30,659 nt of DNA from Myxococcaceae bacterium (GCA_044230055.1 JBGART010000083.1:1-30659); one strand, 5' to 3'. Shown: positions 7,909-24,139, numbered from the stretch's first letter. Notes: a model not told the origin generated them from the letters alone. A program made the numbers and translations.

Positions 7909-9291
7909 TTATTTTTGTGACAGCGCTGCGCTGCTTTCATTCGCACTCCAGCTCAAGTCGACTTCAACAGGCACCGCGCGTGTGGATTGGCTCATCACTG
8001 AGCGCAATCCGAGCGTAGAGATTACGGTGGAGGCCGCCTCTTCACCGGAGCGCACGGCGCCCTCGACGCCAGGGAGCGCGAGGTAGTCCCCAGCGAGGAT
8101 GACCGGATGGCGGTGGGCGCGCCGCGCTGCGAGCTGCGAGAGCCATCCTTCATAGAAGAGCGGCATCGCCTCGGCAATCTGAACAACCGACGACTTCGAC
8201 GGAGCCAGCGCGCGACCCAGCAGCTTCTCCGTTTCGGCCAGCAGCGTGTCCCTCACCACTGCTTTGGACTCCGACAGCAGGCGCGGCGCGGCCCCGACAG
8301 AGGCGATGGTCTCCAGCCCGCCCTTTCCGACAGGCACCTGTGAGGTCCCTTTCGCTTCGACGGCCGCCACCCAACCCAGTGGCGCGTTCGGGCCGAACGG
8401 AATGGCGCAGCGGATACCCACCGGCGCGTCCAGGCATTGATGGAGCTTCACCGTCGGTTGGTAGCGCGCGCGCCGCACCAGGCTGAGCTCCGGGTGGTCC
8501 GAGGGGAGCATCGCCGCCGCGGCGGGCCCCGGGACGGCCATGACCGCCATCTGTGCGTCGAGCACCGCGCCGTCCTGCAGCGTCACGCGCACGCCAGGCC
8601 CCGCCGCCAAGACCTTCGCCACCGGCGAGGAGGGCCGGAAGTCCAGCCCGCGCGCGACGGATTCCCACAGCCGCCCGAGGCCGCCCTTGAGGCAGAGGGT
8701 CTTCAGGCCCGCCACGTGGACCGCTTCAAGCAGCGCCCAGGCGCGCGAGGTTTCGGTCGCCGGCAGCAGCGTGATGCTCTCCAGGACCGGCCGCAGCAGC
8801 GCGTCCACGAACTGCTCGCCCAACGCCCGCCGGAAGAACGCGTCGGCGCTCTCGTCGTCGAAGCGCGCCGCCCGGTGGGGATGCTCCCAGGAGAGGAACG
8901 GGAGCGCCCAGAGGCCCTTCGCGCCGAAGGCCAAAGCGCGCAGCCGCGCTCGCAGGCTGAGCAGCGGCGTCCGGAGGAACCGGGCCAAGGTCAACGGCAA
9001 GGGGAAGCGCTGCCCGTCCCGCCAAAGCTCGATGTCCTGGAAGGGGTAGGGCACCAGCTCGCCGGTGAGCCCCTGCCCCGCAATGAGCGCCAGCGTGCGC
9101 CGGTTGAAGGACGCGATGAAGACCGCGCCGCGGTCGAAGCGCCACTCACCAACGCGGTCGTAGCCGGACCTGCCGCCGGGCGCCGCGGCGCTCTCCAGCA
9201 CCACCACCCTCGCCCCGTGCTGGGTGAGCTTCACCGCGGCCGCCAGCCCCGCCGGGCCGCCACCAATCACCACCACGCGCCTGTCACCCAT
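7909..9291 (-). CDS. FAD/NAD(P)-dependent oxidoreductase of the amine-oxidase/phytoene-desaturase/protoporphyrinogen-oxidase superfamily.
   Basis: N-terminal Rossmann dinucleotide motif MGDRRVVVIGGGPAGLAAAVKLTQHGARVVVLESAAAPGGRS. Length 460 aa. The start overlaps the upstream gene stop (operon). The C-terminal ~40 aa run into the low-GC region and may be an over-extension. Confidence 0.75.
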   Translation of the reverse strand: MGDRRVVVIGGGPAGLAAAVKLTQHGARVVVLESAAAPGGRSGYDRVGEWRFDRGAVFIASFNRRTLALIAGQGLTGELVPYPFQDIELWRDGQRFPLPLTLARFLRTPLLSLRARLRALAFGAKGLWALPFLSWEHPHRAARFDDESADAFFRRALGEQFVDALLRPVLESITLLPATETSRAWALLEAVHVAGLKTLCLKGGLGRLWESVARGLDFRPSSPVAKVLAAGPGVRVTLQDGAVLDAQMAVMAVPGPAAAAMLPSDHPELSLVRRARYQPTVKLHQCLDAPVGIRCAIPFGPNAPLGWVAAVEAKGTSQVPVGKGGLETIASVGAAPRLLSESKAVVRDTLLAETEKLLGRALAPSKSSVVQIAEAMPLFYEGWLSQLAARRAHRHPVILAGDYLALPGVEGAVRSGEEAASTVISTLGLRSVMSQSTRAVPVEVDLSWSANESSAALSQK

Positions 9292-9299
9292 GGTCCGTC

Positions 9300-11612
9300 T
9301 CAGTAGAACTGCAGGTACTGCACGGGAGAGGCGCTCGCCGAGGCGCGCTTGGGCAGAGACGGCAGGATGATGAGCGCCGCCTTCAGGAGTGCAGAGATGC
9401 GATCGTTGTCGATGCCGCGCAGCACCGCCTGGAACAACCCCAGCGCGTTGCGGGTGGTCTGAGGGAACGTGCGGAGGTCAAACGGGAAGGTGACGCTCTC
9501 CGGAGAGGACTGGCTGCGGACGTACGCCTCCATCCCCGCGCCCTCCTGCCGCTCCTTCAGCGCCGGGAAGATGAGCTCGCGCAGGAAGACGATGTCCTCG
9601 CCAAAGTCGATGGCCTCGTCCACCACCAGCGAGGCGAACATGAACGCCGAGAGCAAGGCCTCCCGCCGCTGCGCGCGCTCGTCAAGGCACTCGGCGCCGC
9701 TGAGCATCGCGGCGAAGGCCTCGGTAGGTAGGACGAAGGTGTCGAACTTGTAGTTGAAGATGTCCTCCATCGTCCGGCGGCCGGCGGCGGGCGGGAGGTG
9801 GCCGTGCTCCGCCTTGAACCAGGCGGAGTACATCACGCGGGTTTTTCCCTCGAGGTAGCGCTGGGCCTCGGGTCCGAACGGCGACGCGGCCTTCTCCCGC
9901 GCGAAGATGCTGGCCCACATCGCGCTCTCGTCATGGCTCCAGAGGTGGCGCTGAAATTCCCCCTCGCTGAGCGGGCGGCCCTGAAGCCGCAGGTCCTCGC
10001 GGAAGGAGCGGTCATCCACCACGCGGTCCAACATCACCATGAGGTTCCAGGAGGACGTGAACAGCCCCAGGCCGCCTCTTGCTGCGACGGATTCGAAGGA
10101 GTCCCCGGAGAGCATGCAGTACGCCCAGAGCGTCATCTTCACCGGCAAGCGCCGGTCATGCCGTTCGCCGATGACCGGATACTCGTCGCTCCACGAGCGC
10201 AGCCAGTCCTCCGTCCAGCGCGTGTACTGCCGGTCAAACTCGCGCAGGCTGCGCAGGACGCCGGGAATCTGCGTGAGCTCCGGCAGCGAGAGGGGCAGCT
10301 CATCCCGCATCTCACCCAGGCAGCCCATCAGCGGTTCCACCCGCGTGGTGGCGTAGGCGCGAAGCTCCTCGCGTGAGACCTCCGCCGGCTCGAACCGGCC
10401 GTGGCCCTGGCCCTCGTACGGGGAGCGCGGCGCGAAGAGCTGGAGCGGCTCCGTTGGAAAGACCGTGAAGCTCAACGGGAAGCGCTTGAGGCTGCCCAGA
10501 AGGTGCCGCACCGCGGACCCGCCCTCGCGCAGCCCCTGGAGCGCGGCGGCGAACCGGCCCGGCCGCGGGCGGCGGTGGGCGGCCTGCAGCGCCGGTGCGG
10601 CGCTTGAGCCAGGCTGGAACGCCTCGTCCTCCGGCAGGAGCAGCCGCGCCACCTTGTGGAGCTCCTGGAACGCCACCGTGTCGTTGCGCTCCGACTCCAG
10701 CAGGACGAGTGCCTCCCGGCCGTAGGACTGCGCCAGCTGCTCGCAGTACGCGGGAGCGCCCGAGTCGGCGATGAGGCGCAGGGCGCGCTGGAGCTCCGCC
10801 TCCTCGAGCACCGGCCGCTGCAGCAGCGCCTGCAGCTCCGCCGAGCGCTCAAGCGCGTAGAGCACCGGCAGCGTGCGCTTGCGCCGGACGAGGTCGCTCA
10901 CGCCCTGCTTCTGCAGCTGCTCGACCCGGAAGAGGCCCAGCGCGTCGTCGCGAATCTGGAAAGCCATACCCAAAAGCCGGCCAAAGCGACGCCACTTGTC
11001 AGCGTCTCCGCCCGCCAGCACCGCGCCCGCCTCGGTGGCCGCGCCGAACAACGCCGCAGTCTTGCCTGAGATGAGCTTCATGTATTCGAGGATAGAGACG
11101 TCCTCGCGGCGCTCGTTGCGCAGGTCCTGATACTGGCCCTCGCAGAGCTCCACTCCAGCGGCCTGCAGGATGCGCAGCAGCCGGAGCGCGGTGCGGGGGT
11201 CTACCCCGCGGGCCTCCACCTCCAGCGCCGCGAGGTTGGCCAGCGCGTGCATGCCGTCGCCGGTGTTGATGCCGTGGTTGAGCCCCCAGACTTTCCACAG
11301 CGTGGGATGCCCGCGCCGCACCTCATCCCCGTCCTCGATGTCGTCATGCACGAGCGAGAAGTTGTGCAACAGCTCGATGGACGCAGCCATCGGCAGGGCC
11401 TGCGCGCGCTGTCCCTCCAGCGCTTCGCAGGTGAGCAGGCACAGGGCGGCGCGGTAGCGCTTTCCTCTCCTGCCCGAGCCCGACGCCGGCTCCGCGCCCG
11501 ACCAACCCAGGTGGTAGCGCATCATGTCGTAGAACGCGCCGGTCTGGCTCCGCGAGTCGATGACACGGCGAATCTCCGCGTCCACCAGCGGACCGCACTC
11601 ATTCAGGGTCAT
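9300..11612 (-). CDS. Fusion protein: N-terminal trans-polyprenyl diphosphate synthase (FPP/GGPP synthase family, ~340 aa) + ~430-aa C-terminal domain of unknown function (possibly isoprenoid-synthase-like).
   Basis: First Asp-rich motif LVHDDIEDGDEVRRGHPT and second FQIRDDALG, with KT..LF and GKTAAL elements typical of polyprenyl synthetases. The C-terminal half contains DRVVDDRSFRED and LGLFQAVLRGIDNDRIS, weakly reminiscent of squalene/phytoene-synthase Asp-rich motifs (speculative). Confidence 0.75.
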   Translation of the reverse strand: MTLNECGPLVDAEIRRVIDSRSQTGAFYDMMRYHLGWSGAEPASGSGRRGKRYRAALCLLTCEALEGQRAQALPMAASIELLHNFSLVHDDIEDGDEVRRGHPTLWKVWGLNHGINTGDGMHALANLAALEVEARGVDPRTALRLLRILQAAGVELCEGQYQDLRNERREDVSILEYMKLISGKTAALFGAATEAGAVLAGGDADKWRRFGRLLGMAFQIRDDALGLFRVEQLQKQGVSDLVRRKRTLPVLYALERSAELQALLQRPVLEEAELQRALRLIADSGAPAYCEQLAQSYGREALVLLESERNDTVAFQELHKVARLLLPEDEAFQPGSSAAPALQAAHRRPRPGRFAAALQGLREGGSAVRHLLGSLKRFPLSFTVFPTEPLQLFAPRSPYEGQGHGRFEPAEVSREELRAYATTRVEPLMGCLGEMRDELPLSLPELTQIPGVLRSLREFDRQYTRWTEDWLRSWSDEYPVIGERHDRRLPVKMTLWAYCMLSGDSFESVAARGGLGLFTSSWNLMVMLDRVVDDRSFREDLRLQGRPLSEGEFQRHLWSHDESAMWASIFAREKAASPFGPEAQRYLEGKTRVMYSAWFKAEHGHLPPAAGRRTMEDIFNYKFDTFVLPTEAFAAMLSGAECLDERAQRREALLSAFMFASLVVDEAIDFGEDIVFLRELIFPALKERQEGAGMEAYVRSQSSPESVTFPFDLRTFPQTTRNALGLFQAVLRGIDNDRISALLKAALIILPSLPKRASASASPVQYLQFY

Positions 11613-11728: not shown

Positions 11729-12379
11729 TTGAAGATGCGCTCGTCCACTCAACGCAAATCCCTGGCACGCCCGGCCGGAGTGCTCGCCCTCCTCTCTGGC
11801 TTTGGCTTTGTCGGCTTCAGCGGGCTGGCGTGCCTGGGCTGCCTGGTGCCGCTGGTCTCCGCCTGGGGCGTGGGCGCGCTGGCGGAACACTGGGCCGCGC
11901 TGCCCACCGCGGCGGGCCTCGGCTTCGCCGCCGTCGCTACCACCGTCTGGTTCTTCGTCATGCGCCGAAGGGAGCGCCGTACCGGCGCCGCCTGCGGCCC
12001 CGAGTGCGCCACACCGGTGGGCGTCACCGACAAGCCTGTCGCTTGCGACCTCAACGTCTTCACCCCGTCGGAGCGGGAGGAACACGGCTCCCAGTTTCTT
12101 CAGCGGGTGCTCGGCAAGGCGCGGCGGCGGGTAGAGCTCTCCGACGGACTGGCGCTGGAGTACGCGAGCGACCCCGACTTCTTCGTGCAGCTGGCGCAGT
12201 GGACGGTGAACGAGCGGCGCTGCTGCCCGTTCTTCACGTTTGAGCTGGCGCTGGAGCCGGACGGCGGAGCGCTCTGGCTCAAGCTGCGCGGGCCGCAGGG
12301 GACGCGCGAGCTGCTGCTGGCGGGGATTGCGTCGCTCCCTCCCCCGTTCGCGTCGAGCGTTGCGCCGTCAGGCGCATAG
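11729..12379 (+). CDS. Cys-motif membrane protein with MerT-like N-terminal half (two TM helices, CxxC in TM1, CGPEC in cytoplasmic loop) and a C-terminal domain containing a CC pair (ERRCCPFFTF). Candidate thiophilic-metal binding/transport protein. The 3' end runs into MITE copy 3.
   Basis: TM1 GLACLGCLVPLV resembles MerT ASACCLGPLV. The following loop AACGPECA resembles the MerT cytoplasmic Cys pair. The last 14 codons (...PPPFASSVAPSGA*) are encoded by the MITE arm, including the TAG stop. Confidence 0.6.
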   Translation: MKMRSSTQRKSLARPAGVLALLSGFGFVGFSGLACLGCLVPLVSAWGVGALAEHWAALPTAAGLGFAAVATTVWFFVMRRRERRTGAACGPECATPVGVTDKPVACDLNVFTPSEREEHGSQFLQRVLGKARRRVELSDGLALEYASDPDFFVQLAQWTVNERRCCPFFTFELALEPDGGALWLKLRGPQGTRELLLAGIASLPPPFASSVAPSGA

Positions 12380-12598: not shown

Positions 12599-13762
12599 TT
12601 AGAAGTAGAGCCGAATCTGCAGGTGCCCCATCCTCGGGACCGAGCCGAGCTCACCCGCGCCGACGCTTACCATCCCTCCCGCGGCGACGGTGGTGTTCTG
12701 GTCAAAGCTCCACTCCAGCTCTGGCACCACCAGGCCAGAGCCGTCCGTCAGGTTGGCGATGACCACCAGGTTCGCCGTGAGCAGCGCGCCCAGCTCGTAG
12801 CTGACGGCCGCGCCCGCGTAGAAGCGCCCGACCAGGGCCAGCTCCCCCGACTGCCAATCCAGGCGGCGCCGGACGTCTGCGTAGCCGGCGGGCGTCAGCG
12901 CACCGGCGCGGCTGTAGTGCAGCTCCGCGGTGACGGTGAGCCCCGGCCGCAGCGTGTGCTGCGCGCCGACGGTGGCCCGCAGCAGCGGAATGCGCGAGGG
13001 CGGCTCCTCCACTTCTGAGCCGTCCTGCCGCGCCCGCCAGAACCCCTCCGCGTAGAGCGACGCGCCGCCCACGTCCCCGGAGACATCCACTGCCACCGCC
13101 GGCGACGTGCCGGAGACGCCGGCGTACGCCGCGAGGTCCACGCCCGGGACGCTCACCCGGGCGCGGCCCAGCAGCGCGCCCTGGCTCAGGTAGCGGCGGT
13201 GGCCCACCGCGTACACCTCCAGCTCCACCTGCTCGCCCACCGGCGCAGTCAACCGCACCGCGTCCACGCCGGTCTTGAACTCCCGGTCCAGCGCTGCGGG
13301 GTGGAACGGCGCGAAGAGGTCCGACGCGGCGAACAGCCGCGCGCTGCCGTGGCCCAGCGCCTGACGCCCCACCCGCAGCGTCGCCGCCCCCACCGCGAGC
13401 GTCAGCATCAAGCGGTCCAGGTTCTGGTCCAGCGCGAAGCTGGAGGTGCGCACAATCTGCCGTGGCGCATCCACCAGCCGCAGGGCGGTGTGAACCGAAG
13501 GCGCTGCTTGCAGCGGGAAGACCGCCGACTGGAGCGCGTAGGCCAGCTCGAACGCGCCGTCCTCGCCGCTGACTTTGAGCTCCGCGCGCAGGCCCTGCTC
13601 CACCGCAGCCTGCGCCGGCGCGTCCGGCCCCGCGGGCGCGAGGTAGAGCGTGAGCACCTTGAGCCGCCCGCCGAAGGTGGCGGTGCGCTCGGCCCCTGAG
13701 AGCTCGAACGCGAAGGCGGCCCGGGACGCGAGCAGCAGCGCGAGCCACGCGGCCCGCCTCAT
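12599..13762 (-). CDS. Outer-membrane beta-barrel protein (signal peptide, C-terminal aromatic residue), last gene of the export operon.
   Basis: MRRAAWLALLLASRAAFA signal. Alternating amphipathic beta-strand pattern. C-terminal ...HLQIRLYF. The start overlaps the stop of the upstream ABC ATPase gene. Confidence 0.6.
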   Translation of the reverse strand: MRRAAWLALLLASRAAFAFELSGAERTATFGGRLKVLTLYLAPAGPDAPAQAAVEQGLRAELKVSGEDGAFELAYALQSAVFPLQAAPSVHTALRLVDAPRQIVRTSSFALDQNLDRLMLTLAVGAATLRVGRQALGHGSARLFAASDLFAPFHPAALDREFKTGVDAVRLTAPVGEQVELEVYAVGHRRYLSQGALLGRARVSVPGVDLAAYAGVSGTSPAVAVDVSGDVGGASLYAEGFWRARQDGSEVEEPPSRIPLLRATVGAQHTLRPGLTVTAELHYSRAGALTPAGYADVRRRLDWQSGELALVGRFYAGAAVSYELGALLTANLVVIANLTDGSGLVVPELEWSFDQNTTVAAGGMVSVGAGELGSVPRMGHLQIRLYF

Positions 13763-14472
13763 CGCCGCTCGTCTGCCTCAACCCTCCCGTCGTGGAGCGT
13801 CACCCGCCGGGACGCGGCGGCCATCACCCGCGGGTCGTGCGTGGAGAAGATGAACGTCGTCCCCAGGCGCCGGTTGAGGTCCACCATCATCTCCACGAGC
13901 GCATCCCCGGTCTTGCTGTCGAGGTTGGCGGTGGGCTCATCCGCCAGCACCAGCGCGGGCTTCGGGGCGATGGCACGCGCCACCGCCACGCGCTGCTGCT
14001 GCCCGCCGGAGAGCTCGTTCGGACGGCGGTGCAGCTTGTCGCCCAGCCCCACCTGCTCCAGCGCGTGCGAGGCGCGCTCCCTCCGCTCCTTCTTCTTCAC
14101 GCCCTGAATCCACATCACGTACTCCACGTTCTCCAGGACGCTCATCACCGGCACCAGGTTGTAGGCCTGGAAGACAAAGCCGATGCGGTCTCTCCGCAGC
14201 AGGCTGAGCGCGCTCTCCGGCAGGCGGGTGAGGTCCTTCCCCTCGAGGACGACGGCGCCCTCACCCGGGCGGTCCAGCGCACCCACCAGGTGCAGCAGCG
14301 TGGACTTGCCGGAGCCCGAGGGGCCGGCGATGGCCACCAGCTCCCCCGGCGCCACCCGGAGCGACACCCCGTTGAGGGCCCGGACGGTCTCGCTGCGCGA
14401 GGTGTAGTGGCGGCTGACGTCCCGAAGCTCGACGACGTTCTGCGGGGCGACCATGACGGCTCCCTCCTCCAT
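13759..14472 (-). CDS. ABC transporter ATP-binding protein (LolD/MacB-NBD/FtsE-like).
   Basis: Walker A GPSGSGKST, ABC signature LSGGQQQRVAVARA, Walker B LVLADEPTANLD, H-loop THD. ATG at 14472 overlaps the permease stop (ATGA). Confidence 0.85.
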   Translation of the reverse strand: MEEGAVMVAPQNVVELRDVSRHYTSRSETVRALNGVSLRVAPGELVAIAGPSGSGKSTLLHLVGALDRPGEGAVVLEGKDLTRLPESALSLLRRDRIGFVFQAYNLVPVMSVLENVEYVMWIQGVKKKERRERASHALEQVGLGDKLHRRPNELSGGQQQRVAVARAIAPKPALVLADEPTANLDSKTGDALVEMMVDLNRRLGTTFIFSTHDPRVMAAASRRVTLHDGRVEADERR

Positions 14473-15698
14473 CAAGCGGGATTGAGCGCTTCCACCGGCC
14501 GCAGGCGCGCGGCCCGCACCGCGGCGAAGAGCCCGGTGAGCGCGGTGAGGCCGGCGAACAGCGGCGCCAGCGTGAGCGCGTGCGCGGCCTTCGGCCGGAA
14601 CAGGATGGCGTCCTTCACGTAGACGCCGGAGAACTCCATGCCTTCGATGGGCATGCCCCAAATGGCGAACGGCGCACACAGCGCGAAACCCAGCGCGCAG
14701 CCGGCCGCCGCCCCCAACAGGCCCAGCGCGGTGGACTCGCACAGCAGCAGCGCAGCCAGCCGCGCGGGCGAGGTGCCCAACGCGCGCAGGACACCGAGCT
14801 CGCGCAGCCGCTCCGCGAAGGACATCCGCAGGGTGTTGACGATGGAGAAGCTCGCCACACCGAAGACGGCCAGCGCCAGCAGGTAGATGAGGTTGCGCTG
14901 GAACTGGTACGCGGTCCACAGGAGCGCGTTGAGACGCTGCCACGGCGCCACCTCCACGTCCGGACCCAGCGCCCCGCTCAAGGGCAGCAGCGCAGCGTCC
15001 AGCACCGCCGGGTCCGTGTTGGGCCCCGCAAGCTTCAGCGCCACCTCGTGCAGCTCCCCGCCCTGCCCGCTCAAGGCGCCGGCCTGCGGGAGCGAGGTGA
15101 CGACGGCCTCGCGGTCCAGCAGCGCGTTTCCAGAGGCGATGAGGCCGCTCACCCTCACCAGAACGCTGCGCAGCTCGCCGGTGCGCGCGTCCGCCGCGGT
15201 GAGCACCAGCTTGTCGCCCACGCCCAGCTCCAACCGGGTGGCCAGCTCATGCCCCAGGAGCGCCTGGCCCTCACGGACCGGCCAGCTGCCGTGGAGCAGC
15301 TTCCGGTGGAAGAGCGTCACCTTCGGCTCCTCGGCAAGGTCCACGCCGATAACCTGCACGTTGGCGCTGCGGTCTCCCATCGCCGCCAGCGCCAGCACGT
15401 ACTGCCGCGGCGCCGCGGCGAGCACGCCCGGCGTGGCGCGGGCAGCTTCCAGCGCGCGGGGCCCGTCCGGAAGAACCCGCTCCTGCTCGCGCTCGGCGCG
15501 GTAGGCGCGATGGTGCAGCTGCGCGTCGCCCAGAAAACCTCCGGCGGAGACCTCCACCGCCTGGACGAAGAGCCCCTCGATGTAGCCGAGCAGGAAGAGG
15601 AAGAGCGCCAGGCCCAGGCCAATGGCGGACGCGGTGAGCAGCGTGCGCTGCCGCTGCCGCCACAGGTTGCGGAAGGCGAGCGTGAACATCCAGAGCAT
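14472..15698 (-). CDS. FtsX-family ABC permease (LolC/LolE/MacB-like, four TM with large periplasmic domain).
   Basis: N-terminal LAFRNLWRQRQRTLLTASAIGLGLALFLF and C-terminal FtsX block ...VASFSIVNTLRMSFAERLRELGVLRALGTSPARLAALLL... Confidence 0.8.
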   Translation of the reverse strand: MLWMFTLAFRNLWRQRQRTLLTASAIGLGLALFLFLLGYIEGLFVQAVEVSAGGFLGDAQLHHRAYRAEREQERVLPDGPRALEAARATPGVLAAAPRQYVLALAAMGDRSANVQVIGVDLAEEPKVTLFHRKLLHGSWPVREGQALLGHELATRLELGVGDKLVLTAADARTGELRSVLVRVSGLIASGNALLDREAVVTSLPQAGALSGQGGELHEVALKLAGPNTDPAVLDAALLPLSGALGPDVEVAPWQRLNALLWTAYQFQRNLIYLLALAVFGVASFSIVNTLRMSFAERLRELGVLRALGTSPARLAALLLCESTALGLLGAAAGCALGFALCAPFAIWGMPIEGMEFSGVYVKDAILFRPKAAHALTLAPLFAGLTALTGLFAAVRAARLRPVEALNPA

Positions 15699-15703
15699 GG
15701 GGC

Positions 15704-16903
15704 CTACGTCTCCTTCATCGCGTGAAGCGGAGTCAGCCGCGCGGCGCGGAGCGCGGGCCAGAGGCTGGCGAGCAGCCCGCCTACCAGCAGCACCAGCGGA
15801 TAGAGGAGGTTCCCCTCCGCGGTGGCCAGCCCCTGCACGGTGTGGAAGACGACGCCGGCAATCTCCATCGGCTCATCGCCTATCGGAACTTGAAGGCCAT
15901 TCATCGCGGTGCCCAGGAGCGCGCCCACCGTCACGCCTCCGGCCGTGAGGAAGAAGGCCTCCCAGAGGATGAGGCCCACCACCTGGCGGGGTGAAGTCCC
16001 TAGCGCACGCAGGATGCCCAGCTCGCGCGTCCGCTCGAAGACGGACATCAGCAGCGTGTTGACCACGCCCACCGCGATGATGGCCAGGAAGATGACCACG
16101 CCTGGCCGGTTCGCGCCGCGCTCGGTCCGGATGTAGTTGGCCAGCGCAGGCATCACCTCCGGCCAGCCCTGCAGCCGGTGTCCCTGCACCGAGGGCAGGC
16201 GCGTGAGGAAGGCCTCCAGCGCCGTGGGCTCATGCAGCCGGCCCACCACCCGGTGCGCGCGGTCCGGCAGCTCCAGGAGCTCTCGGGCGTCGGCCAGGGT
16301 CACGAAGGCCAGCGCGCTGTCCGCCTCGTCGGAGCCGGAGGTGTAGACGCCGCGGACGCGGAACAGCTGCGCCGCGACGGCGCCGTCCGCGGCCTGACCG
16401 AGGAAGCTCACCTCGTCCCCCACCTTCACGCGCAGCCGCGCGGCCACGCCGCGGCCTAAAAGGATGTCCGCGCCGGCGCCGGGCGTCAGCCACGCGCCCT
16501 CCTTCACCGCGGCGGGGATGCGCGTCACCTCCGGCTCGCGCACCGCGTCCACGCCGATGAGGCGGACGCCGACAGACCTGTGGCCGGCGGAGACCAGCCC
16601 GGGCGCCTCCACCCGCTCGGTCACCGCGCGGACCTCGGGCGCCTCCCGCAGCGCCTGCGCCACGGCGCCCGCGCCGCGCACCGTCTTGTTCACGCCCGGG
16701 CGCGCGTTGAAGTCGCCCGCCATCACCTGGAAGTGACCGTGAAAGCCCTGCGTCACCCCGTCGGTCAGCAGCGCGAAGCTGCCCTCGTTGACGCCGTTTA
16801 TCCACACCAGAAAGGCGGTGCCCAGCACCACCATCGCCACGGTGAACGCCGAGCGGCGGGTGTTGCGGCGCAGGTTGCGCAGCGCCAGCCCTGCGGTCGC
16901 CAT
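15704..16903 (-). CDS. FtsX-family ABC permease (second LolC/E-like paralogue).
   Basis: MATAGLALRNLRRNTRRSAFTVAMVVLGTAFLV... and C-terminal ...VGVVNTLLMSVFERTRELGILRALGTSPRQVVGLIL... The ORF-track ORF (to 17374) over-extends; ATG at 16903 abuts the upstream gene stop. Confidence 0.8.
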   Translation of the reverse strand: MATAGLALRNLRRNTRRSAFTVAMVVLGTAFLVWINGVNEGSFALLTDGVTQGFHGHFQVMAGDFNARPGVNKTVRGAGAVAQALREAPEVRAVTERVEAPGLVSAGHRSVGVRLIGVDAVREPEVTRIPAAVKEGAWLTPGAGADILLGRGVAARLRVKVGDEVSFLGQAADGAVAAQLFRVRGVYTSGSDEADSALAFVTLADARELLELPDRAHRVVGRLHEPTALEAFLTRLPSVQGHRLQGWPEVMPALANYIRTERGANRPGVVIFLAIIAVGVVNTLLMSVFERTRELGILRALGTSPRQVVGLILWEAFFLTAGGVTVGALLGTAMNGLQVPIGDEPMEIAGVVFHTVQGLATAEGNLLYPLVLLVGGLLASLWPALRAARLTPLHAMKET

Positions 16904-17649
16904 CACCCGCCCCCGGAGGTGAGCGCGGAGAGCGTGAAGAGGGACTCGCTGGCCGGCGTGTCGAACTCCAGCGTGTCGTAGAGGAGCGTCGTCTGGTGGC
17001 CCTGCTTCGTGAGCGGCGTGACCACCAGCTTGTGCGGCGTGAGCCGCTCCCCCACCTTCCTCACGTCGGAGAACGTCAGGCGGCGCGCCAGGCGGCCCTT
17101 GTCGTCGTGGTACTCGCAGGTGACCGGGACCAGCGTCCGCGCGTCCACGCAGGCCACCACCCGCTCCCAGGCGACCGCGGCGTCCGGCCGGGCCTTGAGC
17201 TCCACGCAGGTCTGCCCTTCGGGCGCGGATGGGAGGGTGGTCCCCTCGTAGTCGACGCTGTACTTCACCGCCTGGACGAGGTCGTCGTGGGTGAAGTCGC
17301 TCCCCATCCAGGAGCTCATCAACATCGAGGGCGGGATGCGCACCGTCTTGCCAATCTTCGGCAGGTAGTTCCACATCTGGGCGCCCTTCTTCAGGCTGGC
17401 AGTGCCGCTCTCCTTCTTCGGCGCCAGAATCCTCACCAGCGCGTCATCCGCGCCGCGCGACCAGAAGTCCAGGCTGAGCTCGCGCTGGAAGTCCGGCGCC
17501 TGCACCTGCATGCGCATCCGGCCGTGGCTGGTCCGGGACCGGAACAGCTCATCCAGCCGCGCGCTCACCGCCTTCGCCTTCTCATCCGGCGCCGCCTGCG
17601 CCGCGACGCCCGCCACCAGCAGCGCCAGCACCCATCCCCGGCTCCTCAT
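16903..17649 (-). CDS. Periplasmic LolA-like / outer-membrane lipoprotein-sorting (DUF-type) protein commonly partnered with FtsX/ABC exporters.
   Basis: Signal peptide MRSRGWVLALLVAGVAAQA; ~230-aa beta-rich soluble protein; conserved partner position. The start ATG overlaps the TfuA stop (ATGA). Confidence 0.6.
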   Translation of the reverse strand: MRSRGWVLALLVAGVAAQAAPDEKAKAVSARLDELFRSRTSHGRMRMQVQAPDFQRELSLDFWSRGADDALVRILAPKKESGTASLKKGAQMWNYLPKIGKTVRIPPSMLMSSWMGSDFTHDDLVQAVKYSVDYEGTTLPSAPEGQTCVELKARPDAAVAWERVVACVDARTLVPVTCEYHDDKGRLARRLTFSDVRKVGERLTPHKLVVTPLTKQGHQTTLLYDTLEFDTPASESLFTLSALTSGGG

Positions 17650-18977
17650 CCGTTCGCCCCTCCGTACTCGCGCAGCAGCTCCTCCAGCAGCGCCTCACCG
17701 CTCTCGAACCCCAGCTCCCGCGCGTGCAATTCGACGGACCCGCCGACGGTCCGCACCTGCCGCTGGTAGGTCTCCAGCGCGCGCGCCAGTCGCCGCTCCC
17801 GCGCTCCAGGCTCCTCGGCCGCGGGTGCCGGGCGCTCGCGCAGGTGCGCAAGCGTGCGCCCGAACGTCCCGCGCCGCTTGAGCTCCTGCGACAGCAGCTG
17901 CGCCAGCCGCCCCTCGCCGCGCAGCGCCGCCTGTACCTTGTCGAAGAGCACCTCGAAACGCAGGACTTCGCGCAAGCCCGCGCCCGACAGCTGATTCTCC
18001 TCCAGCCAGCGCCGCGTGGCCTGCGCGCTCACCAGGCCTCGCGCCCGACGGAAGCGCTCACCGGCCGCCGCCACCTCCTGCTCGCTGACGGCAAGCCCCC
18101 TCGCCGCCGCCTCCAGCTCCAGCAGCTGGAGCAGCACCGTCGAGCGCAACAGCTCCTCGCCCTCCGGCCGCACGCGCACGCCCCGCCAAAGCGCCGCCGC
18201 ATCCACGTCTGCAGACGGCGCGTCCGGCAACGCGAGCTGCTCCGGTGAGGTGGAGCGGACCAGCTTGTGCCAGAAGCGCGTCTGCTCGAAGTGAAAGCCC
18301 GGCGCGGGCGCCAGCGCCGGCAACCCTTCAGCGAGCCGCTGCAACAGCGCCACCGCGTCGCTCCGCTTGAGGTTCGGCCGGTGGGCGAGGACGAAGGCGC
18401 GCAGCCGCGCGCGCTCCGCACCCGGGATGGCCAGCGCTTCGCCCAGCCCCTCGCTCCACAGCGCGGGCCAGCTGCGCTCCGGGTAGTGCAGCCCCTTCGC
18501 CGCCTGCTCCAGCAGCGTCCGCGTCCGGGCGGAGATGTCTCCGGCCTGCTCCGCCAGCCGCAGCCCATCCCGCAGGTTGACCATCGCGTCGGAGAGCGGC
18601 ACGTAGCCGTCCTCCGCGGGGCCGTGGACCACGGTCACCTCGTCGTCGTCCTCCAGCACCCCGTCGCGGTAGGCCTCGAAGATGCGCCCCACGCCCTCCA
18701 TCCCGAAGGCACAGAGCTCCGCGGCGCGCAGCGCCCCCATGCTGGAGGCCCCCAGTACGCGCACGCCGCTGGCCAGCGCGAAGAGCAGCTCCTTGTGCCA
18801 GACCGCCGGGCGCTGTTCAAAGAAGCCGTCGATGAGCGCGATGACGGACGGCTTGCGCGTGGCCACCAGCTGGTAGACGTCCCCCATCGCCGCTGGGGGC
18901 AGGAAGTGGGCCGTGGGGAGCAGGGCCTTCGCCTCGACGGGCGGCAGGGAAGGACCCAGGAAAACCCAGACGCTCAC
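17646..18977 (-). CDS. TfuA-like protein (YcaO partner for peptide backbone thioamidation) with ~200-aa C-terminal extension.
   Basis: N-terminus (M)SVWVFLGPSLPPVEAKALLPTAHFLPPAAMGDVYQL...IALIDGFFEQRPAVWHKELLFALASGVRVLGASSMGALRAAEL...GVGRIFEAYRDGVLEDDDEVTVVHGP, a near-textbook TfuA domain. GTG start overlaps the YcaO stop. Confidence 0.8.
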   Translation of the reverse strand: MSVWVFLGPSLPPVEAKALLPTAHFLPPAAMGDVYQLVATRKPSVIALIDGFFEQRPAVWHKELLFALASGVRVLGASSMGALRAAELCAFGMEGVGRIFEAYRDGVLEDDDEVTVVHGPAEDGYVPLSDAMVNLRDGLRLAEQAGDISARTRTLLEQAAKGLHYPERSWPALWSEGLGEALAIPGAERARLRAFVLAHRPNLKRSDAVALLQRLAEGLPALAPAPGFHFEQTRFWHKLVRSTSPEQLALPDAPSADVDAAALWRGVRVRPEGEELLRSTVLLQLLELEAAARGLAVSEQEVAAAGERFRRARGLVSAQATRRWLEENQLSGAGLREVLRFEVLFDKVQAALRGEGRLAQLLSQELKRRGTFGRTLAHLRERPAPAAEEPGARERRLARALETYQRQVRTVGGSVELHARELGFESGEALLEELLREYGGANG

Positions 18978-20209
18978 GCGCGCGCCTCCTGCGTTGCGGA
19001 GGCCTTGAGGTATGCGTTGACGCGTGGGCCCGGCTGGTAGTCGCTGGCGAAGAGCCGCGCCTCCAGCCCCGGGACCACTACCTTCACCACGGGCACCTTC
19101 AGCTCCGGCCGGGAGAGGTTCACCACCGCTGCTTGCGCCAGGCCGATGCGCCGCAGCGCCTGCACGAGGACCTGGAGGTCTCCCTCGAAGGTGTCCGTCG
19201 CCAGGCTGGCGCGCGCGCGGAACGCGGCGGCCGGCGCCGGGGTGCGGATGCGCTCAATGCGGGCGGCCAGGGCGGCGTCACGCGTCCAGGCGCGGTACTT
19301 CGAGTAGAAGAGGTCATCCCGGCTCCCGGAGACGAAGGCCAGCCGGCTCTGCACCGCTTCGCTGAGCGCGCGCATCAGCGCCACCGCGGGGGAGAGGTGA
19401 CAGCCGTAGCCTCCGAAGATGCCCAACCTCCGCCAGCGCGGCCGGTCGGATCCGTCGAAGAGCTCGCAGGCGTACGCCGGGATGCCGGTGTCCGAGGTGA
19501 CGTCCCAGATACCCACGTCGACGTCCGCCAGCCGCATGCGGCGCAGCAGCTCCAGACAGCCGGCGTCATCCACCGTCGCCGGGTCCACCTGCCGCGTCTT
19601 CGCTTCCTCGGCGCTCTGGTACTCCCAGAGCGTGATGGCGTCCCGCTCGATGAGCTCGCACAGGCCGTGGACGGTGGCCTCCACCAGGTGATTGCCAGAG
19701 GCCAGCCCGTTGCTGGAGGGCGGCACGACCGGGCGGTAGCCCGCAGGCCAGACGAAGCTGACGCTCACCGCGTCGTGCGGCACCCAAACGGACTCGCCGC
19801 GCAGGAGGTCCTCTCCCTCCACCCAGAGGCAAGGGCCGGCTTGGGGACCCAGCCCCAGCTCCAGCACCCGGGAGGACTTCGCCAGCAGCGCAGGCTGTTC
19901 GTGCCGCAAGGGCAGCGCCAGGTGTTCGCCGTGCCAGACCTCGATGGACTCCATCAGGGCGGACACCTTGGCGGCGAGAGGGTCCAACCCCTTCCCCTGC
20001 GACGTCGCCAGCGAGCGCGAGTTGGGCCGCACCGCCACGTAGACGGGCAAGCCAATCCGGTCCAACCCCGTCACGTTCGCCAGCCGCGTGATGCCCAGCG
20101 GGCCCATCAGCGGCGAGAAGCGCGCGAAGGTCTCCTCCGGGCTGCACGCGCGGTGCGTCCCGTTGAGGAAGCGCTTGGGCGGATGCGGTGGCTCGCCCCA
20201 GAGGTTCAT
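18974..20209 (-). CDS. YcaO-domain protein (ATP-dependent peptide backbone amide activation: cyclodehydratase/thioamidase type).
   Basis: LNGTHRACSPEETFARFSPLMGPLGITRLANVTGLDRIGLPVYVAVRP...LCELIERDAITLWEY (YcaO ATP/Mg-binding ExxERD-type motifs). ATG overlaps the stop of the upstream HO-like gene. Confidence 0.85.
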   Translation of the reverse strand: MNLWGEPPHPPKRFLNGTHRACSPEETFARFSPLMGPLGITRLANVTGLDRIGLPVYVAVRPNSRSLATSQGKGLDPLAAKVSALMESIEVWHGEHLALPLRHEQPALLAKSSRVLELGLGPQAGPCLWVEGEDLLRGESVWVPHDAVSVSFVWPAGYRPVVPPSSNGLASGNHLVEATVHGLCELIERDAITLWEYQSAEEAKTRQVDPATVDDAGCLELLRRMRLADVDVGIWDVTSDTGIPAYACELFDGSDRPRWRRLGIFGGYGCHLSPAVALMRALSEAVQSRLAFVSGSRDDLFYSKYRAWTRDAALAARIERIRTPAPAAAFRARASLATDTFEGDLQVLVQALRRIGLAQAAVVNLSRPELKVPVVKVVVPGLEARLFASDYQPGPRVNAYLKASATQEARA

Positions 20210-20928
20210 GCGGTCTGCCGGTAGACGTCGTGACCCATCCGCCCCCAGGTCTCCAGGGTGGCGCGCGCGTGGAGCAACACCGCCTCCTGGTCCGCCGGGT
20301 CCGTGAAGCCGCGCAGCCGCCGCCGGGCCGCGTCCATGTGACCCACGTCCGACTCCGCGTGGCCGCCGAAGAAGCTCACCGCGTTGCGGATGTTGGGGAG
20401 CTGCGAGTGGGCGATGAGGTTCTTCACAATCCGTCCCGCCACCTTCTCCCCGAGCGACTCCAACACGTAGGCAATGCCCCAGACGCCCACCGGCGTGGGA
20501 CTGAGCGCGGCCGCCCAGAACATGGCGATGTACGCTTTGGCCGCCGGGCCGGGCTGGCTGCGCTCCAGCGCCTCGCGGGAGACGCCCAGCTCACCCAGGT
20601 CCGAGGCCAGCCACGCGTCATGCCCGGACTCTTCGTCACCGTGCGCGGCCAGCTCCTTCGCCATCTGCTGGAGGTAGGGCGTCTTGAAGCGCGCCCAGCG
20701 CGCGTCCGCGAAGCGCGCATCGTCGCTGCCGTAGAGCCGCATGGACTCGCCGGCGGCGCGGAGCATGGCGGGGACGTGCTTGGCGCCCTGGCGAATCTCG
20801 TCATAGATGCCGATGAGCTGCGCGCGCGTGGGCGTGCCGCGCAGGAGCGGCCCGAAGACCGGGTCCTCCTCCAGCTGGGCCGCCAGCTGCGCGCTCAGCG
20901 CTTCCAGCTGTTCAATCAAGTCGCTCAT
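20206..20928 (-). CDS. Haem-oxygenase-like di-iron enzyme / 'iron-containing redox enzyme family' (TenA/PqqC/CADD-like fold) protein.
   Basis: ~240 aa, all-helical. Recurring E/H/D ligand pattern (...DEESGHDAW..., ...FFGGHAESDVGHMD...). Family assignment is from memory of this protein family and is less certain than YcaO/TfuA. Confidence 0.55.
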   Translation of the reverse strand: MSDLIEQLEALSAQLAAQLEEDPVFGPLLRGTPTRAQLIGIYDEIRQGAKHVPAMLRAAGESMRLYGSDDARFADARWARFKTPYLQQMAKELAAHGDEESGHDAWLASDLGELGVSREALERSQPGPAAKAYIAMFWAAALSPTPVGVWGIAYVLESLGEKVAGRIVKNLIAHSQLPNIRNAVSFFGGHAESDVGHMDAARRRLRGFTDPADQEAVLLHARATLETWGRMGHDVYRQTA

Positions 20929-21010: not shown

Positions 21011-21148
21011 GTCAGTCGTTGATGAGACAAGCGTTGCCAATCAGGCACGCGTCGCCCACCGGGTCGCTGCTGATGAGGCAGGCCGACTCGGCCTTGCTCT
21101 CACCGGCGAGCTCTTCCGCCGTCTTCACGTCGAGATCCTTGATGTCCA
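21011..21148 (-). CDS. Candidate RiPP precursor peptide, 45 aa: MDIKDLDVKTAEELAGESKAESACLISSDPVGDACLIGNACLIND. Acidic helical leader + core with three ACLI repeats.
   Basis: Found by hand translation of the 270-bp gap between the terpene synthase and the HO-like gene. ATG at 21148 is preceded by AGAGAGGAGGGGAAGAGAAAAA (GGAGG RBS). GC3-rich codons are consistent with host usage. TGA stop at 21011-21013. Not in the ORF track (too short). Confidence 0.65.
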
Positions 21149-21200
21149 TTTTTTCTCTTCCCCTCCTCTCTTGGGCCAGGGTCGTCACGGGTGGCCGCCC

Positions 21201-22106
21201 TCAAGAGAACAGGGCACCGGGGACGGTGTCGAAGCGAGCCGTTGCCCATCGGCCCCAGTCGTAAGAACCGCGCATGATGTGTCGCAAGACCTCGGTGAGC
21301 CGTCGGACCGCGGCGTCCGCGGCGCCGCCGAAGCGGGGCAGCGCCTTCTCCCGCTCCAGGAAGAGCTCCACCAATCCATTGGAGACGCGGGCCACCCCCT
21401 CCAGCGCCCGCGTAGAAGAGCAGCCGCGCTCCGCCTTGAGCATCCGCACCACGTTGTTCTCCCGGCAGGTGTCCGGTTTCATGGAGAAGGCCAGCACGTC
21501 GCTGGTGAGCCGCACTGCCAACGCGGCCAGCCGCTTGAGCCGCGCGAGCGCCGGGTGACACCGCAGCTGCGGCGGCACGTCGATGCCCTTGAGCACCTCG
21601 ACAATCCAGACGCAGGGATAGATGGCCACCGCGGACGCCTCCATCTCCAGGTACTGCGCGAAGGACGGGACGCGGGACAGCCGCCGGTTCTCCGCCTCCC
21701 AGCGCCACGAGTCCTGCATCTCCTCCACCAGCACATCGAACTCCTCGAGCGCTGGCCGCTCGCAGAACGTCCCCAGCCGCTGGCGGAGGTCGCCGAAGGC
21801 GGCCCCCAATGCCGCGTCCATCACCCGGGGCTGCCTCGCGCACGACGTCCCATCACAACGGGCGTCGATGGCGAAGACCCAGGCCAGGTAGTCCGCGAGG
21901 AGCTGGAGCCGCTCCGTGGGACCGTCGGGGTACATCATCCCCCCGAGCACATGGACCGCGAACCGGTCGAACTCCCCGACTGCTCCGGCGTCGAGCACGC
22001 CCATCTGTTCCAGCCATTGCAGCATCGGCTGGCGGGTGTGCTCACACCGGACGTTGGACGCAGGCGGGAAGGGATAGAAGAGGTCTGGAAGGCGCGCCGT
22101 CTGCAC
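21201..22106 (-). CDS. Class I terpene synthase (bacterial terpene cyclase family) with degenerate first metal-binding motif. The start is uncertain (GTG 22106, or upstream 22220 overlapping the neighbouring gene).
   Basis: LPDLFYPFPPASNVRCEHTRQPMLQWLEQMGVL...LADYLAWVFAIDARCD aligns with the ...ADYSAWFFVWDDRHD region of bacterial cyclases; here the DDxxD motif is D-A-R-C-D. An NSE-like region RENNVVRMLKAE lies ~135 aa later, and the C-terminus has a W...R(F) motif. Confidence 0.65.
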   Translation of the reverse strand: MQTARLPDLFYPFPPASNVRCEHTRQPMLQWLEQMGVLDAGAVGEFDRFAVHVLGGMMYPDGPTERLQLLADYLAWVFAIDARCDGTSCARQPRVMDAALGAAFGDLRQRLGTFCERPALEEFDVLVEEMQDSWRWEAENRRLSRVPSFAQYLEMEASAVAIYPCVWIVEVLKGIDVPPQLRCHPALARLKRLAALAVRLTSDVLAFSMKPDTCRENNVVRMLKAERGCSSTRALEGVARVSNGLVELFLEREKALPRFGGAADAAVRRLTEVLRHIMRGSYDWGRWATARFDTVPGALFS

Positions 22107-22125
22107 GGGTTCCTGACCTCGCCCG

Positions 22126-22593
22126 CTACTGGCGGCGTCCCCAACCGGTGAAGTTGACGTCCTTGTTGCCCACGCTGACGAAGCGGATTTCCCGCCCGCC
22201 GTCGTCGAGCACGAACTCAATCTTCGAGGCTTCGCCCTCGGCGGTGATGCAGTCCATCTTGCCGAGGCCGCCGCGGCGCAGCTCGTACTTGCAGACGAAC
22301 GCCTCGCGGGCGCTCTGGCCGCCGGGCGCGCTGATGACGAACTCGCCCGTCACGCGGCTGATGCCGTCCGCGTGCAGCCGCCCAATCTCGAAGATGCGGG
22401 CGCCGTTGGCGAGGACACCCTCCACCGAGACGCCGTAGGCGCCCTTGAGGTCATGCGGCTTGAAACAGTCGTTGGCGTTGTTGTTGAGCGCCTGCGTCTG
22501 GGCGGACAGCTCCTCGCCAGGCGTGGCCGCCATCAACAGGGCAGCGAGGGGAACCAGGACGGCCACCGAGGACAGCGCATAGAGCTTCTTCAT
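22126..22593 (-). CDS. Secreted hypothetical protein (~155 aa, signal peptide, beta-rich; calycin/nitrobindin-like guess only).
   Basis: ATG 22593 gives MKKLYALSSVAVLVPLAALLMAATPGEEL... The ORF track's longer version uses an upstream alternative start. Confidence 0.5.
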   Translation of the reverse strand: MKKLYALSSVAVLVPLAALLMAATPGEELSAQTQALNNNANDCFKPHDLKGAYGVSVEGVLANGARIFEIGRLHADGISRVTGEFVISAPGGQSAREAFVCKYELRRGGLGKMDCITAEGEASKIEFVLDDGGREIRFVSVGNKDVNFTGWGRRQ

Positions 22594-22639: not shown

Positions 22640-24139
22640 TCACTGGAATGTCTGAACAGAGCGCCCGCTGGGGAGCGACGTCGGGATGAGCTGCCTGAGC
22701 CGGACGGGGCTGGCGCGTGGGTCCGCCAGGCCGTTGGAGACGAACGCCACCAGCGCGTTGAGCTCCGCGTTGGTGAGCGACACCGGCTGACCCATGCGGG
22801 AGTCCAGCGTGGTGAGGACAATCTCGTTGACCGGGGTCTGGTTTCGGCAGTCCGAGGGCAGGCCCAGCTTGTTGAACTTATGCAGCGAGTCGTGGACATC
22901 CAGGTGGTGCCGAATGGCGCCCGCCAGGCTGTCGAACGCGCCGTTGTGGAAGTAACGCGGGCTGTAGGCCAGGTTGCGCAGCGGCGAGGTCCGGAACTTG
23001 TAGCGGTCCGCGGCGGTCCCGCTGACCTGCTCCAGCCCGAAGTCCTCATTGCCGCCGGGCCCATCCCAGGTCACGTTGGTGAGCGAGGGGAAGACCGGCG
23101 GGACGCCGATGTTGTGCTGGGCGAAGTCGCTGAACATCTCGTTCGCCTCACCCGAGACCGCATGGCAGCCAACGCAGCCCGCCTTGCCGAAAAAGAGCAG
23201 CGCGCCGCGCTTCTCCTGCTGGGTGAGCGCGTTCTCGTGGCCGCGGGCGAAGCGGTCAATGGGCGCGTTCGCGTACGTCTGGCTGAGCTCGAACTCGGCG
23301 ATGGCCGCCGCCAGCATCTCGTACGTGATGGGGCCGCCGTGCTTGACGATGGAGTAGACCCGGCCGAACAACTTCCGGTACTCCGCGTTGTTGTTCAGCC
23401 GGGCGATGACGTCGGTCCGGACGACGTCGTGGTCGGTGGAGGCGTTCAGCCCGGCCATCTCCGGCAGCTCCGTCGGCGGTATGAAGGCCTGTGCCGTGAG
23501 CAGCGTGGGCATGGCGTCCAGCGAAGAGCCCTCCGGCGAGGGGAAGAGGAAGCCCTGGCTGTTGTCGAACGGGTCCCCGGACTTGGCGGCGAACCGCGAG
23601 TTCCACATCAGCGTCGGGTAGAACGCGTTGTTGGCGATGCCCGGCGCGCGGCGCTGGTTGCGCGGGCCGACGCGGGAGCTCCCCACCTTCTGGTTGTTGT
23701 CGATGCCAATGGCGATGGCCTGCGAGTCACCCCACCCCGCGGTGGGCGCGTGACAGCCGGAGCAGGAGTTGTCGTCCTTGAGCGCCAGCAGACTGTCGAA
23801 GAAGGCCAGCCGTCCCACGTTGGCCAGGTTCGCGTTCAGCTTCCTGCCCAACCGCGGCTCCAGGGTGGCTTGAACCCGCCCGGTGAAGCCGTACTGCTTA
23901 AGGATGACCTTCAAGGCGACGTCGAGCGGGTCCTTGGCGCGCGCGTTGGAGCGGTCCCGCCCAGGCGCCTCGTGCGCCTCTCCGTCGGTCAGCGCTTCGG
24001 GGAGCAGGTCCAGCTGGGCCAGCTCCGCGCTGAGGGCGTCGCTGTCCTCTGACAGCTCGTCCGGCGCCTGCAGGCCCGGGCCGCAGCCCGCCGTCAGCAT
24101 GGCCGCGAAGAGCGCGGCGGTGGTTTTGAATTGAGACAT
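22640..24139 (-). CDS. Di-haem cytochrome c peroxidase (CCP/MauG family), lipoprotein.
   Basis: Two CxxCH haem motifs (CSGCH, CVGCH); lipobox LTAGCG; ~500 aa, typical of the family. Confidence 0.8.
   Translation of the reverse strand: MSQFKTTAALFAAMLTAGCGPGLQAPDELSEDSDALSAELAQLDLLPEALTDGEAHEAPGRDRSNARAKDPLDVALKVILKQYGFTGRVQATLEPRLGRKLNANLANVGRLAFFDSLLALKDDNSCSGCHAPTAGWGDSQAIAIGIDNNQKVGSSRVGPRNQRRAPGIANNAFYPTLMWNSRFAAKSGDPFDNSQGFLFPSPEGSSLDAMPTLLTAQAFIPPTELPEMAGLNASTDHDVVRTDVIARLNNNAEYRKLFGRVYSIVKHGGPITYEMLAAAIAEFELSQTYANAPIDRFARGHENALTQQEKRGALLFFGKAGCVGCHAVSGEANEMFSDFAQHNIGVPPVFPSLTNVTWDGPGGNEDFGLEQVSGTAADRYKFRTSPLRNLAYSPRYFHNGAFDSLAGAIRHHLDVHDSLHKFNKLGLPSDCRNQTPVNEIVLTTLDSRMGQPVSLTNAELNALVAFVSNGLADPRASPVRLRQLIPTSLPSGRSVQTFQ

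Follow-up and report, generated by a model that had tools for sequence, protein, structure and literature searches.

Why should genes for a transport system of the cell envelope follow directly upon genes for a ribosomally synthesised and post-translationally modified peptide (RiPP)? The question is raised by a contig of a Myxococcaceae bacterium (GCA_044230055.1, JBGART010000083.1), which was analysed over its whole length of 30,659 nucleotides (30.7 kb, about 70% GC) and is called the window below. Its minus strand holds an uninterrupted array in which a precursor peptide gene, a haem-oxygenase-like (HO-like) gene, YcaO and TfuA are followed by five genes (12599-17649) for a LolA-like carrier, two FtsX-type permeases, an ATP-binding cassette (ABC) ATPase and an outer-membrane barrel, here termed the cassette. 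An earlier note on this DNA had taken the five genes for a dedicated export module of the peptide. Judged by the sequences compared here, they are not a dedicated peptide exporter but belong to a Lol-like (type VII ABC) trans-envelope system that is widespread and complete in itself, of which the window has one copy. What the cassette would do for the RiPP operon is a separate matter: that a resident, TetR-type cassette was captured and now provides second-step export or self-protection, by removing the mature peptide to the outside once it is in the periplasm or the outer leaflet, is given about an even chance.

An alignment of the LolA-like carrier was scanned against one genome per species (185,579 species) and found at least 577 relatives, the best 80 loci of which were analysed. 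Their six-frame open reading frames (ORFs) were searched with hidden Markov models (HMMs) and with phmmer from the window proteins, the neighbourhood being 10 kb. The count of cassette order was limited to the 63 of these 80 loci with at least 5.3 kb downstream, and in 59 of them carrier, permease, permease, ATPase and barrel-family gene follow one another on one strand; the terminal position in other loci is matched by the barrel-family HMM at 7e-32 to 4e-160. The best 80 loci span more than ten phyla, with Myxococcota, Acidobacteriota/Aminicenantes, Poribacteria, Gemmatimonadota, Bdellovibrionota, Desulfobacterota, Planctomycetota, Omnitrophota, Elusimicrobiota and Spirochaetota among others, and they include the Gammaproteobacteria Colwellia, Litorilituus, Reinekea and Saccharospirillum. 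YcaO, TfuA, HO-like, precursor, terpene synthase and polyprenyl synthase genes were found within 10 kb of none of the 80. Six further loci reached by other routes (L003, L005 and L169-L172) carry the full cassette and no RiPP genes; the last four hold the closest LolA-like proteins in a larger protein collection (51-53% identity). In all, 66 complete cassettes were counted with the window and 65 without it, and none of the 86 distinct LolA-like loci (the 80 and the six) had RiPP genes nearby. With the same five genes recurring in this way across more than ten phyla, the word dedicated in the earlier note cannot be upheld.

The cassette is inherited as a unit, since the same loci (L006-L010) stand within the best five or six matches for each of the five window proteins. 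Of 73 loci, 18 have a TetR-family gene immediately before the cassette and in the same orientation, and a divergent TetR gene is found upstream in three of the four closest relatives (L169, L170 and L172). The window has no adjacent TetR gene, and its upstream position is occupied by TfuA. When the ORFs around the 80 cassettes were clustered, TetR was the sole conserved partner, the other recurring clusters being generic (histidine kinases, ABC ATPases and tetratricopeptide repeat (TPR) proteins). In L171 (4946-7119) there is a 4-nt overlap between the start of the carrier gene and the end of an unrelated amidohydrolase gene, within a run of dehydrogenase and amidohydrolase genes, which indicates that translational coupling to an upstream gene is not peculiar to the window.

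Some variation in layout was also observed. Several of the Poribacteria loci (L026, L032, L033, L058, L067 and L073) have about 2.2 kb between the carrier gene and the first permease gene, and two Pseudomonadales loci (L028 and L069) have three permease genes. A gene for a CCP_MauG di-haem cytochrome c peroxidase lies near the cassette both in the window (22640-24139, minus strand) and in a Myxococcales metagenome-assembled genome (MAG; L001, 17594-18910, minus strand), which may be coincidence.

Loci of the YcaO-TfuA type were compared in the same way from the RiPP side. This set comprised 83 loci, made up of the closest YcaO homologues on long contigs and of 80 metagenome loci from a TfuA alignment; at least 3 kb lie downstream of TfuA in 35 of the 83 and at least 5.5 kb in 22. 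A LolA-like or barrel-family gene was found in none of the 83, so that the pairing is indeed as unusual for this RiPP class as the earlier note had held it to be. The comparisons from both sides thus gave the result that the note itself had named as refuting its reading.

The domain searches and structure predictions that the note had named as checks were both run, and Pfam domains and coordinates together bear out the gene content and order that it gave. The carrier gene (16903-17649, minus strand like the other genes of the array; 248 amino acids) has LolA_like PF17131 as its only Pfam match (E 9.5e-44). The N-terminus of the protein, MRSRGWVLALLVAGVAAQAAP, reads as an SPI-type signal peptide and has no lipobox cysteine, cysteines being present at positions 148, 167 and 178 only; the cassette-typical WNYLP...PPSMM.SWMGSDFTNDDLV block is also held by the carrier. 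Its AF2 model (pLDDT 92.5) had LolA3 of P. gingivalis (PGN0947, PDB 9TP6) as top Foldseek match (E 1e-18, TM-score 0.8), the closest solved structure at 26% identity, followed by the structural-genomics entries 3BK5, 3BUU and 4Z48 (E about 1e-18, TM-score about 0.8). Canonical LolA matched the model at E about 1e-8 with a TM-score of about 0.45, and LolB also at E about 1e-8. The modelled fold identifies the carrier as a predicted soluble periplasmic protein of the LolA3 type (PF17131 / TP_0789-like).

Permease 1 (15704-16903, 399 amino acids) and permease 2 (14472-15698, 408 amino acids) each show MacB_PCD and FtsX domains, with E 1.1e-13 and 1e-16 for the former and 1e-12 and 3.3e-13 for the latter. 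Both have one N-terminal transmembrane segment, a periplasmic domain of about 225 amino acids and three C-terminal transmembrane segments, which is the MacB/LolC topology; in permease 1 the hydrophobic segments are at residues 20-38, 263-281, 308-326 and 364-382. Their best NCBIfam match is TIGR02212 lolCE, at 114 bits for permease 1 and 111 bits for permease 2 against a cutoff of 362, and these LolC/E-like permeases of the type VII ABC class are probably heterodimer partners. The ATPase (13759-14472, 237 amino acids, or 231 from an alternative ATG at 14454) matches ABC_tran (E 2.8e-35) and has by pattern a Walker A motif GPSGSGKS, an LSGGQ signature and an H-loop THD; its Walker B motif LVLADEP was read by eye in the translation, as the search pattern did not match it. 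Its best curated matches are LolD, DevA, YbbA, the MacB nucleotide-binding domain and DarD, none of which reaches its cutoff: the LolD model TIGR02211 gives 228 bits, below 307.75, and the darobactin export model DarD (NCBIfam) 202 bits, below 375.

The gene that always ends the cassette (12599-13762, 387 amino acids) encodes a protein that no Pfam or NCBIfam family matched. It has a signal-like N-terminal segment and ends in ...RLYF, and it is modelled with confidence as an 18-strand beta-barrel (pLDDT 87, pTM 0.84). Its 24 homologues found are all distant, the best at 43% identity. Three of them have long contigs, namely a Myxococcales MAG, an Acidobacteriota genome and a metagenome contig, and in each the barrel gene ends the same five-gene array, with neither YcaO nor TfuA nearby. 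A profile search at E<=1e-10 retrieved 4134 representatives of 50%-identity clusters, and by this measure the barrel family is large, and it is unnamed. Among its invariant residues in a 25-sequence alignment are R59, D116-R117, G132-R133-Q134, D148, P152, G165, D167, E280 and D340.

The 21 window ORFs scanned (nine of the operon and 12 others) yielded neither a membrane-fusion gene, in line with the earlier note, nor one of the TolC type, and no membrane-fusion adaptor was seen among the cassette genes of those relatives with Pfam annotation; the adaptor-type gene at L169 belongs to a separate, neighbouring MacB-type operon. Six-helix ABC_membrane and C39 peptidase domains, as in transporters of the PCAT/ABC-B type, are also absent, the transport components being FtsX/MacB_PCD permeases and a stand-alone ABC_tran ATPase only.

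The junctions show how closely the cassette is joined to the RiPP genes. The stop of TfuA overlaps the start of the carrier gene in an ATGA (17646-17649), just as had been noted before, and a Shine-Dalgarno sequence GGAGGGG lies inside TfuA, 7-13 nt 5' of that start. Carrier and permease 1 overlap by 1 nt in TGATG (or by 4 nt in GTGA) at 16903-16906; a 5-nt spacer separates the stop of permease 1 (15704) from the ATG of permease 2 (15698), with AAGGAG upstream; permease 2 and ATPase overlap by 1 nt in TGATG at 14472; and ATPase and barrel overlap in ATGA at 13759-13762. The claim that these later junctions are overlapping or within 6 bp therefore stands for the starts as read, but the spacer between permease 2 and ATPase becomes 15 nt if the latter starts at ATG 14454, which has the better Shine-Dalgarno sequence. 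Higher in the array, the HO-like and YcaO genes meet in an ATGA overlap and YcaO and TfuA in a GTGA overlap, and 83 nt separate the precursor gene from the HO-like gene. A chimeric assembly at the TfuA/carrier junction was considered and is unlikely, since GC is uniform there (0.71-0.74), the ORFs are intact and the junction, with its ATGA overlap and embedded Shine-Dalgarno sequence, looks evolved; by the same token co-transcription is probable. A scan for sigma-70 promoters gave no match and terminator-like matches fell mostly inside coding sequence, so that these scans do not inform the operon boundaries.

The RiPP genes themselves have one close counterpart. In the window the precursor (21012-21149, minus strand; 45 amino acids, MDIKDLDVKTAEELAGESKAESACLISSDPVGDACLIGNACLIND) has an acidic leader (MDIKDLDVKTAEEL...) and three ACLI repeats with short, hydrophobic cores. 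It has neither a signal peptide nor a lipobox, and a lipoprotein-like precursor was ruled out on these grounds. It is followed by the gene for the HO-like iron-containing redox enzyme (20206-20928; Haem_oxygenas_2 PF14518, E 4.4e-13), by YcaO (18974-20209; PF02624, E 5e-74) and by TfuA (17646-18977; PF07812, E 1.1e-45), which has a C-terminal extension of about 220 amino acids. The window proteins are singletons in the protein collection searched. The sister of this cluster is found in a Myxococcales MAG (L086), with the order precursor, YcaO, extended TfuA and HO-like gene and with no transporter. Its precursor (9719-9898, plus strand) has a leader of similar style (MFKIEDLRVQDAETI...) and six AGF[IV] repeats without cysteine, where the window has three ACLI repeats; no other repeat-core precursor was found upstream of YcaO in the 83 loci. 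Taken together, the two precursor sequences suggest a small family of multi-core thioamidated RiPPs with A-x-hydrophobic-hydrophobic cores. The TfuA extension (residues about 220-443) is kept in L086, in L087 and in most of the 80 metagenome TfuA loci (query residues 1-438 matched); it is weakly similar to TIGR04500, a PpiC-related peptide maturation protein, and to SurA_N_3, and may be a peptide-binding or chaperone domain. As a side observation, the HO-like gene lies 5' of YcaO in the window and 3' of TfuA in L086 (12633-13346, plus strand), and none of the other 82 YcaO-TfuA loci sampled has it.

How such a system might serve the peptide can be outlined from its relatives. MacB/LolCDE-type pumps act by mechanotransmission on substrates of the periplasm or outer leaflet and offer no transmembrane path for a substrate; peptide and siderophore substrates such as STII and pyoverdine enter the periplasm by other means, and PvdRT-OpmQ exports pyoverdine (PMC5985334). 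In the cassette, the LolC/E-like heterodimer and LolD-like ATPase would use mechanotransmission to pull a hydrophobic or amphipathic cargo from the periplasmic face of the inner membrane and hand it to the soluble LolA3-type carrier with its hydrophobic groove. This carrier would deliver the cargo to the dedicated 18-strand barrel in the outer membrane, for release or insertion. As TetR control is frequent, the carrier has a hydrophobic groove and the system owns a barrel in the outer membrane, its task would seem to be to remove a hydrophobic small molecule on induction, or to deliver it outwards. Most genomes carry the cassette on its own, in many cases preceded by a TetR repressor gene, in the manner of an inducible efflux system. 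In the window the YcaO/TfuA operon would have replaced the regulator, and the cassette, as the translationally coupled 3' end, would be made whenever the peptide is made. Because type VII ABC systems do not move cargo across the inner membrane and the precursor has no signal sequence, the cassette cannot be a complete peptide exporter; the peptide would have to cross the inner membrane by another route.

Several points weigh against this use of the cassette by the RiPP operon. Its fusion to YcaO/TfuA is seen in the window contig alone, as neither the 83 YcaO-TfuA loci nor the 86 LolA-like loci hold a second case, and the window shows no evident exporter that would take the peptide across the inner membrane. 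The folds nearest to the barrel are those of Occ/OprD, maltoporin and chitoporin, which are uptake channels. The direction of transport is inferred from the family alone, and cargo class and the link to the peptide are inferred as well, while the case for co-transcription is made from sequence. Finally, no experiments on any cassette member were found in the literature searched.

The alternative that survives best, although it is rather unlikely, sees the cassette as a passenger that keeps a function unrelated to RiPPs, such as efflux of hydrophobic xenobiotics or envelope lipids, and is merely co-transcribed after a rearrangement removed its own regulator. It would account well for the lack of any association between cassette and RiPP genes, in either direction, outside the window contig, for the sister cluster L086 that does without a cassette, and for L171, in which a cassette is coupled to an unrelated amidohydrolase gene. 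On the contrary, the 4-nt overlap with a Shine-Dalgarno sequence inside TfuA speaks for an evolved junction, the tying of expression to synthesis of an antibiotic-like peptide is what is expected of export or immunity, and the TetR sensor of close relatives has been lost in the window.

The likeness of the cassette to LolCDE-LolA(-LolB) raises a second alternative, according to which it is an accessory Lol paralogue by which some of the lipoproteins reach the outer membrane, the barrel standing in for LolB. The two systems share two four-helix MacB_PCD/FtsX permeases, a separate ATPase, a soluble carrier of the LolA superfamily and the lack of a membrane-fusion protein, and lolCE and LolD are the best NCBIfam matches; an analogous proposal has been made for Borrelia BBJ23-29 (PMC13078400). 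Nevertheless, the permeases (111-114 bits, cutoff 362) and the ATPase (228 bits, cutoff 308) fall far short of equivalog level, the carrier is of LolA3 type and not canonical LolA, the outer-membrane partner is an 18-strand barrel and not the LolB lipoprotein, with no LolB-like gene in the operon, and the cassette is often under TetR control, which is typical of small-molecule efflux. The crystal structure of P. gingivalis LolA3 shows a hydrophobic groove, no LolB binding and neither the arginine of LolA nor the leucine of LolB, and its authors conclude that the protein has a separate function, which is still open (PMC13103446). In F. johnsoniae, deletion of lolA3 left gliding and the type IX secretion system (T9SS) unaffected (PMC11885536). 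Altogether, a role in lipoprotein sorting is improbable.

The genes on both sides of the operon suggest a third alternative, in which the cassette serves lipid or terpenoid trafficking, or carries a prenylated cysteine-containing peptide to the outer membrane. A terpene-synthase-like gene (21201-22220, minus strand) ends 51 nt upstream of the precursor gene. On the other side lie a convergent ORF of 216 amino acids (11729-12379, plus strand), with an N-terminal hydrophobic region, several cysteines and no Pfam family, a polyprenyl synthase with an uncharacterised domain of about 440 amino acids fused to its C-terminus (9300-11612, minus strand) and a flavin amine-oxidase/phytoene-desaturase-like gene (7909-9291, minus strand). 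As side observations, the usual Asp-rich and NSE/DTE motifs of the terpene-synthase-like gene look degenerate by eye, and the core repeats C-L-I-S, C-L-I-G and C-L-I-N (21012-21080, minus strand) fit a CaaX pattern near genes of prenyl metabolism, a resemblance of sequence only. The same-strand terpene-type genes on either side, the CaaX-like C-L-I-X cores and the suitability of LolA-fold carriers for lipidic cargo could be cited in favour of this explanation. Against it, terpene or polyprenyl synthase genes within 10 kb are missing from all 83 YcaO-TfuA loci as they are from the 80 cassette loci, the AGF[IV] repeats of the sister precursor contain no cysteine, and the convergent ORF stands between barrel and polyprenyl synthase. 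It is thus decidedly improbable, and the lipidated product that the earlier note had entertained goes unsupported, the precursor having neither signal peptide nor lipobox and the terpene genes being unlinked to cassette or RiPP genes elsewhere.

That the cassette is a dedicated exporter which co-evolved with YcaO/TfuA and takes the peptide all the way from the cytoplasm to the outer membrane or the exterior is the least credible explanation and a very improbable one, for although the single same-strand array from HO-like gene to barrel with its overlapping junctions, and the lack of any other transporter gene in the operon, speak in its favour, 65 other complete cassettes do without RiPP genes and 83 YcaO-TfuA loci do without a cassette, the nearest relatives of its five proteins are stand-alone cassettes, three of them TetR-linked, and type VII ABC systems give no transmembrane path (PMC5985334) to a precursor without signal peptide.

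The preferred reading, a captured copy of a general system that may help to clear the mature peptide, can also be set against other known transporters. MacAB-TolC-type pumps such as PvdRT-OpmQ and darobactin DarBCD share with the cassette a MacB-family permease and ATPase encoded together with a peptide natural-product pathway, their export starting from the periplasm, and MacB-type pumps inside such clusters are already known (the NCBIfam DarD model; PvdRT-OpmQ). However, where these pumps rely on a membrane-fusion adaptor and a duct of the TolC type, the cassette has a soluble LolA-type carrier and an 18-strand barrel. Its architecture is Lol-like and not MacAB-TolC-like, with an extractor, a soluble carrier and an outer-membrane receptor, and the resemblance to LolCDE and LolA claimed in the earlier note is in this sense correct. 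The type VII ABC system YbbAP-TesA of E. coli also has a periplasmic partner of its own and draws hydrophobic compounds out of the inner membrane (PMC12646458); but this partner is a lipid hydrolase and not a LolA-fold carrier, the system has no outer-membrane component, and the ATPase and permeases of the cassette are far below the YbbA and YbbP cutoffs.

Other PF17131 genes have different partners. In Bacteroidota they share operons with MMPL transporters, and these operons respond to iron and are regulated by TetR; for P. gingivalis and Prevotella an MMPL-family transporter and ABC ATPases are listed as partners, whereas the cassette has two FtsX permeases and a terminal barrel (PMC10434189). 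The nearest published comparable cluster is Borrelia BBJ23-BBJ29, known from a computational description only, which combines a single permease with TPR proteins and a barrel of the Omp85 type (PMC13078400); the cassette has neither an Omp85-superfamily barrel nor TPR chaperones. A broader proposal, which is tentative and stands well short of even chances, is that the cassette represents a fifth type VII ABC architecture beside FtsEX-EnvC, LolCDE-LolA, MacAB-TolC and YbbAP-TesA. Here the soluble LolA3-type carrier would link a LolCE-like extractor with an 18-strand channel belonging to the same system, its freight being small hydrophobic molecules or peptides in place of lipoproteins, and the window fusion would name the first candidate cargo, a small hydrophobic thioamidated peptide.

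For RiPP biology, the window is a one-off fusion of a generic module, and its exporter is not part of a conserved RiPP cluster architecture and is unsuitable as a hook for mining such clusters. For transport biology, the module is a variant of the Lol/type VII ABC theme, and the comparison reveals that the cassette is very common and spread over many phyla, while the literature searched contains no description of it as such. The only cassette-related part to have been crystallised is a distant relative of its carrier, LolA3 of P. gingivalis. The fusion in the window offers a testable candidate cargo and could help to show what LolA3-type proteins carry.

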